A DNA stretch of 9,863 bases from a virus (lineage: Duplodnaviria; Heunggongvirae; Uroviricota; Caudoviricetes), in IMG/VR virus record IMGVR_UViG_2711768003_000003; one strand, given 5' to 3'. The notes under the pieces are model-generated. The model was not told where the DNA came from and searched no databases. It saw only the letters and a program-made list of their open reading frames with translations. Shown in pieces: positions 4,207 through 8,045 of the stretch (position 1 is the first letter of the stretch; every line of letters begins with the position of its first letter). Made by a program: the position numbers and the translations under genes.

Positions 4207-4671
4207 CTACTTAATGCACTGAGTGCGGATATACTCCTGTGCCCCTTCCAGTTGCATCTGCATCGTCATCAGCCGCTCTCTGAGGGTGAAATAATCCCGT
4301 TCAGCGGTGTCTGCCAGTCGGGGGCTGGTTGCATTATCCACGCCGGAGGCGGTGGTGGCTTCACGCACTGACTGACAGACTGCTTTGATGTGCAACCGAC
4401 GACGACCAGCGGCAACATCAGCGCGCAGAGTTTCATTTTCAGCTTTCGCATCAGCTAACTCCTTCGTGTATTTAGCATCGAGTGCATTAACATCACGCTG
4501 TCTCTGCTGCATGTCAGTAATGGTTGCGTTCGCCAGCTTCAGTTCTCTTGCGTTTTTGTCGCGCTGCTCTTTGTAGGTAATGGCGTTATCACGGTAATGA
4601 TTAACAGCCCATGACAGGCAGACGATGATGCAGATAACCAGAGCGGAGATAATCGCGGTGACTCTGCTCAT
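4207..4671 (-). CDS. Rz: Rz i-spanin (inner-membrane spanin subunit)
   Basis: ORF-track start at 4683 is GTG; the ATG at 4669-4671 overlaps the endolysin stop (ATGA). Product [34 protein letters not shown]... closely matches my recollection of lambda Rz: N-terminal TM segment plus coiled-coil periplasmic domain. Confidence 0.93.
4269..4451 (-). CDS. Rz1: Rz1 o-spanin (outer-membrane lipoprotein), embedded in Rz in the +1 frame
   Basis: ATG 4449-4451. Product has a lipobox (LVVVGC) followed by the proline-rich PPPPPAW, as in lambda Rz1; it lies entirely inside Rz. Confidence 0.9.
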
Positions 4672-5165
4672 TGCTGCCCCCACAAACAGACTTCACGCTC
4701 AATCTCACGACGGGTCATCAGCCCTTTCCATTGCTTACCGCCAGCATATGTCCAGCGACATAGCTGGTCACATGCGCCTTTGATATAGCCCTGGTTTATT
4801 TTGCGAAGAAGCGTCGATGTTCTGAAATTGCCAGCGCCCACGTTGTAAACGAACGAGTAAAGAGCGCCGCGCGTTGTTTCCGGTATATCGACTTTGATGT
4901 ACGGGTTAATTTGTCTGGCGACAGTGGCAAGGTCTTTATTCAGGAGGGCTTTGCATTCTGCTTCGGTATACGTTTTACCGAGCATGATGTCTTTTCCGGT
5001 GTGTCCGTGACATACAGTCCATACACCAATGATATCTTTGTATGGTATGTAGCTGACACCTTCCAGACCATCGTTACCACCTGGGCCAGTGATTAACACA
5101 GATGCTATAGCAACAGCCCCACCACCAATAGCAGCTGCAACAGCCTTGCGTAATGATGGCGACAT
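4668..5165 (-). CDS. R: SAR endolysin (phage-21-type lysozyme, T4-lysozyme fold)
   Basis: ATG 5163-5165 overlaps the holin stop (TAATG). Gly/Ala-rich N-terminal signal-anchor-release segment ([20 protein letters not shown]) then an E-x8-D-x5-T catalytic spacing ([16 protein letters not shown]). Matches my recollection of phage 21 R. Confidence 0.93.
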
Positions 5166-5336
5166 TATTCACCTCTCGCAGCCTTACGCTTGTCTTCTCT
5201 TATTTTGAAATACAGATTTGTCAGATAAGTCAGAAGCCCCAGAAGCAGACTTCCCAGCACACCAATCGCAGCCCACTGTGATGGACTGACCTGATCCAAC
5301 CACTGCAAAAACCAGTAGCCGGCACTGCCGGCGGAG
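5165..5336 (-). CDS. S: Class II holin / pinholin (phage-21 S-like), C-terminal 57 codons only; 5' end lies in the N-run
   Basis: Visible product ...[56 protein letters not shown] matches the two-TM S21 architecture. The ORF runs upstream into the N-run at 5337, so the start and about 14 codons are missing. Confidence 0.85.
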
Positions 5337-5690
5337 NNNNNNNNNNNNNNNNNNNNNNNNNNNNNNNNNNNNNNNNNNNNNNNNNNNNNNNNNNNNNNNN
5401 NNNNNNNNNNNNNNNNNNNNNNNNNNNNNNNNNNNNNNNNNNNNNNNNNNNNNNNNNNNNNNNNNNNNNNNNNNNNNNNNNNNNNNNNNNNNNNNNNNNN
5501 NNNNNNNNNNNNNNNNNNNNNNNNNNNNNNNNNNNNNNNNNNNNNNNNNNNNNNNNNNNNNNNNNNNNNNNNNNNNNNNNNNNNNNNNNNNNNNNNNNNN
5601 NNNNNNNNNNNNNNNNNNNNNNNNNNNNNNNNNNNNNNNNNNNNNNNNNNNNNNNNNNNNNNNNNNNNNNNNNNNNNNNNNNNNNNNNNN
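5337..5690. other. Assembly gap (354 N)
   Basis: Uninterrupted run of n. It removes the holin 5' end and whatever lies between the tRNA cluster and S. Confidence 0.99.
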
Positions 5691-5753
5691 GAGTCAGACA
5701 TTCCCACACAATATTGTGTCAGTGCAAATAACAACCTTCGTCTCAAATCTCGC

Positions 5754-5828
<75 letters not shown>

Positions 5829-5831
5829 ATA

Positions 5832-5907
<76 letters not shown>

Positions 5908-5909
5908 GC

Positions 5910-5986
5910 TGGCCCACCACCGAGGACTCGAACCTCGCACCGTCAACTTAGAAGGTTGATGCTCTATCCGGATGAGCTAGTGGTGG
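5910..5986 (-). tRNA. tRNA-Arg (anticodon UCU)
   Basis: 77-nt cloverleaf CCACCACTAGCTCATCCGGATAGAGCATCAACCTTCTAAGTTGACGGTGCGAGGTTCGAGTCCTCGGTGGTGGGCCA. Anticodon stem TCAAC/GTTGA, loop CTTCTAA, T-arm CGAGG-TTCGAGT-CCTCG, encoded CCA. Resembles the argN/argO class of lambdoid-phage tRNAs. Confidence 0.8.
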
Positions 5987-5987
5987 T

Positions 5988-6064
5988 TGGTGGCCCTTGC
6001 TGGACTTGAACCAGCGACCTGGCGATTATGAGTCGCTCGCTCTGACCAACTGAGCTAAAGGGCC
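5988..6064 (-). tRNA. tRNA-Ile2-like (anticodon CAU, probably lysidine-modified to read AUA; elongator Met not excluded)
   Basis: 77-nt cloverleaf GGCCCTTTAGCTCAGTTGGTCAGAGCGAGCGACTCATAATCGCCAGGTCGCTGGTTCAAGTCCAGCAAGGGCCACCA. Anticodon loop CTCATAA; overall close to my recollection of E. coli ileX, and to ileZ of Stx phages. Confidence 0.8.
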
Positions 6065-6253: not shown

Positions 6254-6823
6254 TTAAAACCGCATCAACCGCTCCACCAGTTGCTCTTTACGGGCAACGA
6301 TCCACCCGTGTTGCTCCAGATAAAATTTAAACCGTTCCAGAGTACATACCATCGCATCGGCGGGTACCTTTTCCGTGAACTCAACCTGACCGTGTTTATC
6401 GAAGTGGCTCAGTAATGCGCATCCATCATTTTCGATAGATGTGTTTTGTGCCGCTGGTGGCTGTTTCTGGTTGAAATAACAGTCTTCCAGTTTTTCGAAC
6501 ACTTCCCACGCCTGATCGGTTTCGAGCATTTTGGCGTGACGGGCTGCGCCACGTTCTGTCCAGAGGATGAGGGAGCGAACGTTACGGGCAATTTTCACAG
6601 AAACTCTTAAAGAGTTTTCGTTCTTCAACTCTCGTAACGCATCACCTTCTATCAGGAAAAAATGTTTACCTTCTATAAACCGTTCTTTGTTTCGATTGAA
6701 ATTGTTTGTCAAACGCTGGCGCTCTGTTCCGTACAAATCAGCCAGCAGCTCTGTTGTCATGACAGGAAGATGGTTATGCGTAAGTGACGGGAGTTTTTCA
6801 ATAGACGTGCGATTCATAGACAT
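6254..6823 (-). CDS. ORF6N-domain DNA-binding protein with an uncharacterised C-terminal domain (cargo gene at the Q-to-S locus)
   Basis: The ORF-track N-terminal extension to 7015 is rejected: it overlaps a promoter-like region and translates as junk. Start set at ATG 6821-6823 (MSMNRTSIEKL), with AAAGGA just upstream; the ATG at 6815-6817 is equally possible. N-terminal region LPVMTTELLADLYGTERQRLTNNFNRNKERFIEGKHFFLIEGD matches the ORF6N pattern; the C-terminal ~90 aa are not recognised. Confidence 0.8.
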   Translation of the reverse strand: MSMNRTSIEKLPSLTHNHLPVMTTELLADLYGTERQRLTNNFNRNKERFIEGKHFFLIEGDALRELKNENSLRVSVKIARNVRSLILWTERGAARHAKMLETDQAWEVFEKLEDCYFNQKQPPAAQNTSIENDGCALLSHFDKHGQVEFTEKVPADAMVCTLERFKFYLEQHGWIVARKEQLVERLMRF

Positions 6824-7023
6824 GTCCTTTCGAATATTTTGATTTACCCCTTTTGAGAGGGTGACCGGGCGCTCAAAACCGTCGAAAGTCGGCGGGCGTA
6901 TTTCCATTGCTGGTATTGTATTAGCCGCACACCCGGTCATAAACCAAGAATTCTGGACACAAAAAAACCACATGGCTATCGGGTGTGGATACCGCTTTCG
7001 AGGTGTTTTGAGCACCGCGGGGA

Positions 7024-7052
7024 AATGTAAACTGCAAACCTGAAACTGTCAA
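7024..7052 (-). promoter_or_regulatory. Candidate sigma70 promoter for the ORF6N gene
   Basis: Minus strand: perfect -35 TTGACA (7052-7047), 17-nt spacer, -10 TACATT (7029-7024). It sits about 190 nt upstream of the ORF6N start, leaving a structured leader. Confidence 0.35.
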
Positions 7053-7176
7053 CACCGTCAGGTTCCAATCATCGGGTGGTGAGACGCACAGGGTTGGAAC
7101 TACCGGGAAACCGACCGGCGAGCTTTTCAGCTCCCCCATGCGCCCCACCATAATTCAGATGTGCGCGTGCATACGA

Positions 7177-7202
7177 CAATAAAAAACACGCTCGCGGCGT
7201 GT
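7177..7202 (-). terminator. tR'-like intrinsic terminator downstream of the late promoter
   Basis: Minus-strand hairpin ACACGC-cgcga-GCGTGT (plus 7186-7202) followed by TTTTTTATT (plus-strand A-run 7177-7185). It lies about 75-80 nt downstream of the predicted PR' start. Confidence 0.6.
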
Positions 7203-7263
7203 GTCTGTCGCGGTCTCTATCCGGGGTTCCAATCCCGACGCCAGATTTTGCTGGCGCGTGAGG

Positions 7264-7293
7264 AATATAGCCCCGGACAATGTGTCTGGTCAA
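7264..7293 (-). promoter_or_regulatory. PR'-like late promoter (presumed Q-utilisation region)
   Basis: Minus strand: -35 TTGACC (7293-7288), 18-nt spacer, -10 TATATT (7269-7264), beginning 5 nt after the Q stop codon. A 6-bp hairpin CGCCAG-caaaat-CTGGCG follows in the early transcribed region. Confidence 0.55.
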
Positions 7294-7297
7294 GCAC

Positions 7298-7684
7298 CTA
7301 CATAATTCGTTCTACGTATCTGTCCATCTCCAGCCGGATATCAAGCATCATCAACATGCCATCAATAACCCCTTCCGCTTTCTGCAGGCGCTTGCCAATA
7401 CAGGTATCCGAACACCCATGTTTCCGTGCCAGACTCATAAAAGTCATTCCACCTACGTAATAATCCACCAGCAAATCGTGCAAATCCTGATTTTTCTTGT
7501 TCAACCGGGCCATACAGCCACAAATTATCATTGCATCATCATCAGAACACTGAGGGCGTGATTTCACTTTCGACGGAATTAACCCTTTAAAACCAGCAGC
7601 GATCGACGCCCAGGATACATCTTCATGAGTGTTTGCAGCCCAAGCCCCCCACCGTTCCATAACCTGCTGAATATCACGCGCCAT
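7298..7684 (-). CDS. Q: Late-gene antiterminator Q (QuuD-like family)
   Basis: Product [61 protein letters not shown]... closely resembles my recollection of DLP12 QuuD. Start chosen at ATG 7682-7684 (AGGTGA 5 nt upstream) rather than the ORF-track ATG at 7705. Sits directly upstream of the promoter-terminator pair. Confidence 0.85.
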
Positions 7685-8045
7685 CGTTATCACCTGTGAT
7701 TTCATAAATCTTCACGCCCAGTCGCCCACCAGGAACGAGCTGACCGCGCACAATATTGATTTCATCAAACTGCTCGTCGTCTATGAGTAGTCCGGCATGC
7801 GTCAGCGCATCCAGTGGTGCTTTCAGGATATTGTCCAGGTCACGACGGCGCTTATCCGGTGGCTCTGCAATAATCTTTATCGCCAGCCTTCCGGACAGGT
7901 TTAATTTCAGCCGCTGCTGGCGAACAATTAGCGTCACATCACGGCGATAACGCTCACCAACTTTTGATACAAAATATGTGCTGCCACGACGTCGCCAGTA
8001 AGTATTCACCGTCGGCGGATAAGGTAAAATAAACTCATGGCGCAT
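7674..8045 (-). CDS. rusA: RusA-family Holliday junction resolvase
   Basis: 123-aa ORF, ATG 8043-8045 with GGAGGTG upstream. Conserved RusA features ([12 protein letters not shown], acidic DLDN...LIDDEQ) and typical position in the nin region just before Q. Confidence 0.9.

Follow-up and report, generated by a model that had tools for sequence, protein, structure and literature searches.

A likely two-module c4-type immunity switch, with an sRNA-Xcc1 RNA as its working antisense RNA, upstream of an ORF6N antirepressor-family gene in a lambdoid prophage

This study concerns the locus of an ORF6N-domain gene in a virus of the class Caudoviricetes (IMG/VR record IMGVR_UViG_2711768003_000003). 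The window, meaning the whole stretch of 9,863 nucleotides (nt) that was analysed, is the late region of a lambdoid prophage, and every gene in it is on the minus strand. The ORF6N gene (6254-6817) lies between the gene for the Q antiterminator (7298-7705; Pfam Phage_antitermQ, E=2.7e-52) and the lysis genes, where a preliminary description made from the sequence letters had also placed it. We consider it likely that the locus is an immunity switch of the P1 immI and Gifsy-1 isrK-anrP type, consisting of two tandem modules, and that it controls the ORF6N antirepressor-family protein. This type of locus is already known from P1 immI and from Gifsy-1 isrK. What makes the present locus a variant is that its modules are in tandem and that the working antisense RNA is of the Xcc1 family.

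The P1/P7 immI locus is laid out as promoter P51, a1 b1, the c4 antisense RNA, a2 b2, icd and ant. In the scheme outlined in the Weinberg 2010 supplement, the a' and b' elements of c4 pair with a2 and b2 at the ribosome site, and the upstream a1/b1 copy is a proposed competitor for c4. In the window the Rfam families c4-a1b1/isrK, C4 and sRNA-Xcc1 lie between Q and the ORF6N gene, in that order on the strand of the gene and all above curated cut-offs. The preliminary description had spoken of a long structured leader. Structured it is, but it is made up of four curated RNA families (isrK, c4-a1b1, C4 and sRNA-Xcc1) that had been missed. Both modules follow one order: a promoter, a short RNA with a1/b1 that ends in a leaky terminator, an antisense RNA of ~84 nt shaped like a transfer RNA (tRNA) acceptor with a' in a loop and b' in a joint, and a2/b2 at the ribosome site. 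As in P1 immI, a single strand is used and the antisense RNA and its target are on one transcript. For a' and for b' there is an upstream target copy and a further copy at the ribosome site downstream, with an antirepressor gene behind it; the outer stem is tRNA-acceptor-like with a CCA-like tail, and module 1 is a direct member of the Rfam C4 and c4-a1b1 families. Unlike P1 immI, the modules are in tandem, the working one uses sRNA-Xcc1, which the C4 model does not detect, and the whole is placed directly behind Q in a lambdoid prophage. Module 2 also differs in having no icd-like coupled open reading frame (ORF); its a2 overlaps the Shine-Dalgarno (SD) sequence of the ORF6N gene itself.

Module 2 is complete and directly precedes the gene. 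After b2 of module 1, both the window and E. coli EC12 contain an insert of ~200 nt with a promoter, a1/b1, a hairpin plus U7, the Xcc1 RNA and b2/a2. The promoter scan identified TTGACA-17-TACATT at 7052-7024 (10/12 match), which the preliminary description had also picked out; from the predicted start at ~7018-7016 the leader is ~200 nt long. Both hexamers are unchanged in EC12 despite three changes in the spacer. The upstream target b1, GGTGCTCAAAAC, occupies 7016-7005 (core CTCAAAA, 7012-7006) and is predicted to lie in a hairpin loop. Target a1, TCGAAAG, follows at 7001-6995, and the two provide a 12-nt and a 7-nt complement to the Xcc1 RNA. Judging from its sequence and from U-runs in relatives, the hairpin CCACA...TGTGG plus T7 at 6988-6961 is a putative leaky terminator analogous to that of IsrK. 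The terminator scan missed this hairpin, probably owing to its 11-nt loop. The sRNA-Xcc1-family RNA (6938-6855) matched RF02221 at 77.4 bits against a cut-off of 53, covering model positions 1-87. It carries a' (CTTTCGA, 6888-6882) in the loop of hairpin 2 and b' (TTTTGAG, 6878-6872) in the joint, and its outer stem is followed by a CACCC tail. Downstream are b2 (CTCAAAA, 6857-6851) and a2 (TCGAAAG, 6833-6827), the latter overlapping the SD sequence AAGGA at 6829-6825.

The TTTTGAG/CTCAAAA pair was described previously as a stem near the ribosome binding site, with a second CTCAAAA that could allow alternative pairing. The pair is present, as is the second copy, at 7012-7006 and therefore 5 nt from the place given for it. 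Competition of two CTCAAAA copies for one TTTTGAG was right in spirit. The contacts appear, however, to be those of an antisense RNA with its targets and not a simple cis hairpin near the ribosome binding site, with TTTTGAG read here as b' of the Xcc1 RNA and the CTCAAAA copies as the two sites that it targets. When the a'-b' stretch was paired with the upstream copy the duplex energy was -35.7 kcal/mol, and 0/500 shuffles were as good.

The same arrangement was sought in other members of the family. A conserved-core pattern was used to collect >100 Xcc1-like loci from viral contigs. RNAduplex on long flanks produced meaningless long-range structures and was replaced by counts of exact complements plus duplexes of short segments. 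Exact reverse-complement 7-mers of each RNA were counted in its own flanks and in the flanks of other loci. The counts peaked sharply at two places, the loop of hairpin 2 and the joint that precedes the 3' strand of the outer stem, and did so in both flanks. Percentages are given as RNAs with a complement of at least 7 nt in their own (cognate) versus other loci's (non-cognate) flanks. For the 59 non-redundant viral RNAs, loop a' had a complement upstream in 75% vs 4% and downstream in 73% vs 3%, and joint b' in 66% vs 15% and 56% vs 10%, respectively. The 56 non-redundant genomic RNAs gave 71% vs 3% upstream and 45% vs 2% downstream for a', and 64% vs 10% and 34% vs 5% for b'. Hairpin 1, the control region, showed no difference between own and other flanks in the viral or the genomic set. 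Kinship between loci was not fully removed from the non-cognate control, but a relatedness artefact is argued against because this control region in the same RNAs shows no difference.

Other parts of the module recurred as well. The 3' end of the downstream a2 was 6-11 nt before the start codon in 35/40 loci, and a U-run of at least 5 separated the upstream targets from the Xcc1 RNA in 69/83 loci. The outer stem was followed by a CC(A/C) tail in at least 62/94 RNAs. This tail recalls the tRNA-like end that, according to the account of Hartmann 1995 given in PMC11143913, makes P1 c4 a substrate of RNase P; by analogy it may have the same role here. The first ORF of at least 90 amino acids (aa) past the RNA was examined in 71 loci, and the domains found were KilA-N (14), Bro-N (13), ORF6N (12), Rha (9), AntA (9) and P22_AR_N (8). 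Nearly all of these genes downstream of Xcc1 RNAs match an antirepressor-type family. The analysis thus shows the family memberships, the complementarity and covariation, the position of a2 at the SD sequence and the antirepressor-type genes downstream. In the Xanthomonas genome loci L129, L143 and L168 the upstream a1/b1 covaries with the loop of hairpin 2 (CTATGAG/CTCATAG; CTATGTAC/GTACATAG; CTCTTAG/CTAAGAG).

A sigma-70-like site (at least 9/12) was found just upstream of a1/b1 in 45/74 loci compared with 2/26 control segments. This result bears on the possibility that the promoter at 7052-7024 is a chance match at a recombination joint, the ORF6N gene being expressed by Q-dependent read-through alone and module 2 being an inert remnant. 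Part of the -35 hexamer does come from sequence that loci without module 2 also keep downstream of C4 (GGTGGTGATAG in the E. coli locus L003 vs GGTGTTGACAG here), and promoter-like matches are not enriched in the region. We nevertheless regard a chance match as very unlikely. A promoter-like site recurs at the corresponding place in Xcc1-only loci with unrelated upstream sequence, EC12 keeps its hexamers while the spacer varies, and the window retains a1/b1, U-run, RNA and a2/b2 intact, with a'/b' matching both target copies. From the promoter the preliminary description had suggested possible expression in the lysogen independently of Q. Synthesis of the protein in the lysogen does not follow from a Q-independent promoter; what the architecture would predict is a transcript whose translation is kept off.

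Module 1, upstream of this, corresponds to the isrK locus of Gifsy-1, which is itself a P1 c4 module. The RNA modules begin 4 nt past the Q stop codon with the promoter TTGACC-18-TATATT (7293-7264; 10/12 match in the promoter scan). Its predicted start, ~7257, is the first base of the isrK match, and its position corresponds to that of the Gifsy-1 isrK promoter and start site (PisrK). By position it is also the best candidate for the late promoter PR'. The IsrK-type short RNA, which holds the a1/b1 target copy of module 1, spans 7257-7181 (RF01394, 77.5 bits vs 50) and is overlapped by c4-a1b1 at 7270-7218 (RF03163, 50.1 bits vs a cut-off of 46.7). Within it are b1, GGGATTGGAAC (7236-7226), and the intrinsic IsrK terminator with its U-run (7202-7186), identified by the terminator scan and by folding. 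The C4 antisense RNA (RF01695) is at 7155-7072, with 71.0 bits vs 45, a minimum free energy of -44.9 kcal/mol and z=-5.0. The isrK, c4-a1b1 and C4 matches each span the full length of the model. The hairpin GAGCT-GAAA-AGCTC with a GNRA loop, which had been reported before and is indeed at 7133-7120, is helix P2 of C4. The P3 loop (7114-7107) is a', and the joint (7100-7091) is b', GTTCCAACCC. The downstream copy b2, GATTGGAAC, is at 7070-7062, as located by alignment with L003 and by the list of complementarities.

In L003 an a2, an SD sequence and a start codon follow, and these are missing from the window. Homology to L003 stops right after b2 (...GACAGTTT), and in EC12 it ends after b2 likewise. 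Module 1 therefore reads as a truncated c4-type module that has lost a2, SD and start. L003 also has the same extra base in b1, b' and b2 (GGGATT(A)GGAAC; GTTCC(T)AACCC; GATT(A)GGAAC), a three-way covariation of an indel. The exact junction between module 1 and module 2 had 0 matches in representative genomes. The IMG/VR contig L029 has a leader identical in sequence to that of the window, with equal Rfam scores.

The Gifsy-1 locus of Salmonella has been studied experimentally (Hershko-Shalev et al. 2016, PMC4825925). It has the order isrK-orf45-anrP-isrJ just downstream of a Q-like gene, and the leaky IsrK terminator gives rise to a long transcript that is translationally silent. IsrK acts in trans by binding a ~30-nt stretch of "orf45" and turns on translation of orf45 and anrP, ~140-fold for anrP, and anrP expression raises antQ mRNA (PMC4825925). 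Like Gifsy-1, the window has a promoter directly behind a Q-like gene and an IsrK of 77 nt that ends in a leaky terminator. ATGs are likewise found at positions 107 and 119 of the transcript (7151 and 7139, within C4), and a helix between the middle of IsrK and 'orf45' is in the published register (G28-C162). Counted from 7257, C18, G28, A107, AUG119-121, C162 and G173 of the window match residues that were mutated by Hershko-Shalev et al. The Gifsy-1 pair G31-C159 is A-U here (7227 and 7099), a compensatory change in the b1-b' helix; the Gifsy-1 mutants were G31A and C159U. Gifsy-1 "orf45" coincides with the Rfam C4 RNA, and the processed ~80-nt RNA STnc1160 fits C4. The terms 'phage P1' and 'immI' are absent from the Hershko-Shalev paper (PMC4825925), which makes no connection to P1 c4, and a 2025 review gives IsrK and c4 as unrelated items.

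An 'orf45'-like frame starting at ATG 7151 was considered as a gene and rejected. It is 76 aa long here and 76, 44, 27 and 33 aa long in four relatives, its sequence is unconserved, and the C4 RNA explains the conservation. In the window it stops at 6921, ~100 nt short of the start at 6817. The published orf45-anrP coupling cannot apply here because the frame stops inside the Xcc1 RNA; unlike in Gifsy-1, the 'orf45' stop does not overlap the start (no AUGA coupling). The window further differs from Gifsy-1 by ~200 extra nt between C4 and the gene (promoter, a1/b1, U-run and Xcc1 RNA) and by having no isrJ at the gathering threshold of the Rfam scan. No Gifsy-1 record was among the phage matches listed for the protein. 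The IMG/VR contig L005 (662-1794) has isrK, C4, Xcc1, ORF6N and isrJ in a row, with isrJ at 101.7 bits. A Gifsy-like locus with an extra Xcc1 module accordingly exists beside the published Gifsy-1 layout.

Tandem pairs of sRNA-Xcc1 were also seen within single viral contigs (L058:12430-12770; L098:816-1109). According to a table in PMC12189769, Xylella fastidiosa Temecula1 has five tandem sRNA-Xcc1 copies and strain De Donno has Xcc1, isrK and C4 in a row. In the viral contig L030 (2202-2349) three CRISPR-DR4 repeat matches lie ~150 nt past an antirepressor-type ORF behind an Xcc1 RNA.

The protein under control has 187 aa, and its assignment draws on Pfam, PHROG, homologues and AlphaFold models. 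ATG 6817-6815 was chosen as the likely start because its SD spacing is suitable (AAGGA, 7 nt away) and because near-identical database proteins, P0001 (99% identical) and P0002 (94% identical, N-terminus MNRTS), are both 187 aa long. A start codon at 6823 was not favoured. In-frame extension upstream, to GTG 7015 or to ATG 6905 (giving MEIRPPTFDG...), was rejected as well, since such an N-terminus is translated Xcc1 RNA. Salmonella proteins P0005, P0033 and P0112 have the N-terminal extension MGICPPTFDGFERPV(T/A)LSKGVNQNIRKD..., and P0118 begins MEIC...; both are the translated sRNA-Xcc1 gene. In the same frame, 6820-6938 of the window reads MEIRPPTFDGFERPVTLSKGVNQNIRKD. The start codons of these four database proteins look mis-called.

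The preliminary description had recognized an ORF6N fold at the N-terminus, and profile searches agreed: Pfam ORF6N (PF10543) matched with E=8.9e-21 and 74.4 bits against a cut-off of 27.8. The domain spans ~aa 13-97 (6781-6527) and is followed by a conserved helical extension to ~aa 118. The N-terminal module is common to PHROGs 1760, 4792, 8244 and 377 up to ~aa 126-132. The whole protein matched PHROG 2379, "anti-repressor", with E=3.3e-85, residues 2-188 aligning with profile positions 2-187 of 187 (full length). The closest protein, 99% identical, is from Shigella sonnei, and the family is common in prophages of E. coli and Salmonella. We take the protein to be a member of a prophage antirepressor family, with an activity that its family membership suggests.

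The C-terminal ~90 aa had been called unrecognizable. The C-terminal part indeed has no assignment, but it comprises only ~60 aa (aa ~130-187, 6430-6257), and HAKMLETDQAWEVFEKLEDCYF, which had been counted with it, shows no variation among homologues and is part of the conserved N-terminal module. The Pfam scan found no family in the C-terminal domain, ORF6N being the sole Pfam domain detected in the protein. A structure prediction, proposed earlier as a check, was carried out. AlphaFold gave the ORF6N domain and helical extension followed by a small domain built from a single beta-hairpin and two helices, with a pLDDT (predicted local distance difference test) of 81 for the full model and 83 for the model of the C-terminal domain. 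No neighbour was found: a search of the C-terminal domain against PDB sequences gave no match at E<=1, and Foldseek of the full model gave nothing below E=0.5 in the PDB and nothing below E=0.47 in BFVD. An exhaustive HMMER search of 1.84 billion proteins identified only 25 representative relatives of the C-terminal domain at E<=1e-3. The domain also occurs fused to AntA or to a Rha-like N-terminus, and standing alone. Set against the Salmonella-type homologue of L005, the protein was nearly identical over its N-terminal ~120 aa, and its C-terminal domain had strongly diverged (67% identity overall). Such a pattern would be expected for a partner-specific domain. P1 Ant differs from the window protein, an ORF6N domain plus a small C-terminal domain without a Pfam match, in its domain make-up.

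The position of the gene between Q and the lysis genes led the preliminary description to a cargo gene in the slot used for toxins or other cargo. The promoter-like site and a terminator of its own also fit a cargo gene. In its full form this explanation makes the ORF6N protein a moron, a lysogenic-conversion or exclusion factor made from its own lysogen promoter, with leader RNAs that are stabilizing or attenuating structures or host-targeting small RNAs (sRNAs). Published accounts of sRNA-Xcc1 and IsrK stress roles in the host and in virulence, and the Xanthomonas cassettes discussed below suggest that trans targets may exist. The cargo explanation seems unlikely to us. From end to end the protein fits an anti-repressor PHROG, the specificity elements covary with flanking sites of the same locus, including one at the SD sequence, and the downstream genes are almost always antirepressor-type. 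In addition, Shiga toxin (Stx) phages carry the same gene family and RNAs in the nin region, not in the cargo slot after Q. Their ORF6N N-terminus is ~50-67% identical over the first ~125-158 aa. Stx phage Nil2 has isrK-C4-antA and then 'promoter by homology'-Xcc1-antB in its nin region. In these phages the module is upstream of Q, whereas here it is behind Q, and a Stx-phage Ant such as Nil2 AntB is ORF6N plus P22_AR_C, so that the C-terminal domain differs from that of the window. In phage phi24B, deletion of ant lowers pR' reporter activity during induction (PMC3064807).

Another explanation is addiction. A toxic protein or effect would be held in check by the c4-like RNA acting as a type-I-like antitoxin, and the locus would serve prophage stabilization or abortive infection in place of immunity. 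The repressing RNA is encoded beside the gene that it silences, as such a system would have it; sRNA-Xcc1 is found upstream of the toxin gene symE in Xanthomonas integrons; and overexpression of IsrK in Salmonella leads to growth arrest and death via AnrP and AntQ (PMC4825925). However, the Gifsy-1 account attributes toxicity to AntQ, that is, to prophage derepression, and not to AnrP itself, and 65 of the domain matches downstream of Xcc1 RNAs are antirepressor-type N-terminal domains, not toxins. Addiction overlaps with the mechanism favoured here and differs in the selected function alone; as an account of the locus we find it improbable.

Several observations weigh against an immunity switch. 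The region held 3 promoter-like sites compared with 2.0 expected in shuffles, which is not above chance. The decoy a1/b1 is a much stronger partner than a2/b2, and the downstream contact in the window alone is weak: pairing there consists of two 7-nt contacts, a'-b' with the downstream copies gave -17.7 kcal/mol with 15/500 shuffles as good, and a2 alone was not significant. The a' and b' elements resemble each other here (TTTCGA, TTTGAG), which makes the registers ambiguous. When 6780-7320 was scanned with Rfam models below threshold, the C4, isrK and a1b1 models did not touch module 2. C4 and Xcc1 RNAs appear to have the same architecture, and the C4-model scan does not imply homology between them. 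Module 2 has no coupled upstream ORF like icd or orf45. Going by its description, AnrP of Gifsy-1 would be an ORF6N protein of the same family. Antirepressor activity with this C-terminal domain is assigned by analogy, and the Gifsy-1 evidence behind it is indirect (increased antQ mRNA). Finally, no a2/b2 is obvious directly behind the RNA in Xanthomonas integron cassettes; in L129, L143 and L168 a hairpin followed by ATG takes that place. Because of these cassettes the members of the family need not all work alike.

Taken with these reservations, the immunity switch could operate as follows, on the transcription starts, RNA processing, translational repression and antirepressor activity that we infer. 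Both promoters would fire in the lysogen, and most transcripts would end at the leaky terminators, yielding short a1/b1 RNAs. The Xcc1-type RNA would be released from read-through transcripts, probably through cleavage by RNase P like that of P1 c4, and would pair with b2 and with a2 over the SD sequence, blocking translation in the lysogen. The a1/b1 segment, with its far stronger pairing to a'/b', would compete for these elements or serve as a decoy, whether in cis or, like Gifsy-1 IsrK, as a separate short RNA. The balance of short RNA to antisense RNA would then gate synthesis of the protein, which presumably uses its variable C-terminal domain to bind a prophage repressor, encoded outside the window, and so favours induction or makes it irreversible. 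Should the promoter behind Q be the late promoter on which Q acts, and IsrK its terminated leader, antitermination would let late transcripts run on through the two modules.

The genes of the window lie in the following order: a DnaB-like helicase, RusA (7674-8045), Q, the ORF6N locus, four tRNA genes, a masked N-run, lysozyme, Rz/Rz1, an HNH endonuclease, the terminase subunits and the portal. An intrinsic terminator with an 8-bp stem and a T-run (6178-6157) was found by the terminator scan 3' of the ORF6N gene. The tRNA genes (Met-CAT, Arg-TCT, Thr-TGT and Gly-TCC, 5754-6064) lie between the antirepressor-family gene and the lysis genes and are preceded by a promoter-like TTTGCA-18-TATTAT at 6103-6074. 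The N-run (~5300-5700) immediately precedes the lysozyme gene; the ORFs at 5165-5746 and 5230-5709 are mostly X, and the holin region is unreadable. An Rz1-like lipoprotein frame (4269-4451) is out of frame inside the Rz-like gene (4207-4683), as is usual for lambdoid spanins. DNA resembling the region was found in 1349/5426 complete E. coli genomes, mostly without module 2.

Xcc1 RNAs are found in viral contigs, in genomes named as gamma- and betaproteobacterial (Pseudomonas, Xanthomonas, Haemophilus, Neisseria and others), and in phages, integrons and plasmids. sRNA-Xcc1 is said to have been reported by Chen et al. 2011 as an integron sRNA of Xanthomonas campestris. The literature describes it as a trans-acting, HrpG/HrpX-controlled and virulence-linked RNA with no defined mechanism. 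It has been treated as a candidate effector sRNA in Xylella, its mechanism upstream of symE in Xanthomonas integrons was called unclear, and in APSE phages an Xcc1 RNA was reported upstream of an ORF6N gene without a link to c4. IsrK, for its part, is an Hfq-binding RNA. Unlike these accounts, we read sRNA-Xcc1 as a cis-encoded, c4-like translational repressor with flanking copies of its target. A c4 mechanism for sRNA-Xcc1 was not found in the searched literature, the coverage of which was incomplete.

A wider proposal concerns the whole sRNA-Xcc1 family (RF02221), and we offer it tentatively, as a plausible idea that falls a little short of likely. The family could form a second class of c4-type immunity RNA, and a widespread one. 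Each member would have its own covarying decoy (a1/b1 with promoter and leaky terminator, an anti-antisense sRNA like IsrK) and its own ribosome-site target (a2/b2), and would control the expression of antirepressors and other dangerous genes. A single system would then comprise IsrK, 'orf45'/STnc1160, c4 and sRNA-Xcc1. The modules stacked in prophages such as the present one would differ in specificity, and the first short RNA would serve in addition as terminated leader of the late promoter that depends on Q, linking the late switch to antirepressor release.

The present reading turns an unexplained "structured leader" into a concrete, testable mechanism. P1 c4, Salmonella IsrK, the processed 'orf45' RNA STnc1160 and sRNA-Xcc1, which recent papers treat separately, would share one design of repressing antisense RNA, decoy target copy and ribosome-site target. 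If this is true, many Rfam sRNA-Xcc1 matches in pathogen genomes would mark antirepressor or toxin switches in mobile elements and not host-targeting virulence sRNAs, and database proteins with an N-terminus translated from the RNA gene would need correction. The variable a'/b' elements would set immunity specificities between co-resident prophages, and the control point would bear on the spontaneous induction of E. coli, Shigella and Salmonella prophages, including Stx phages.

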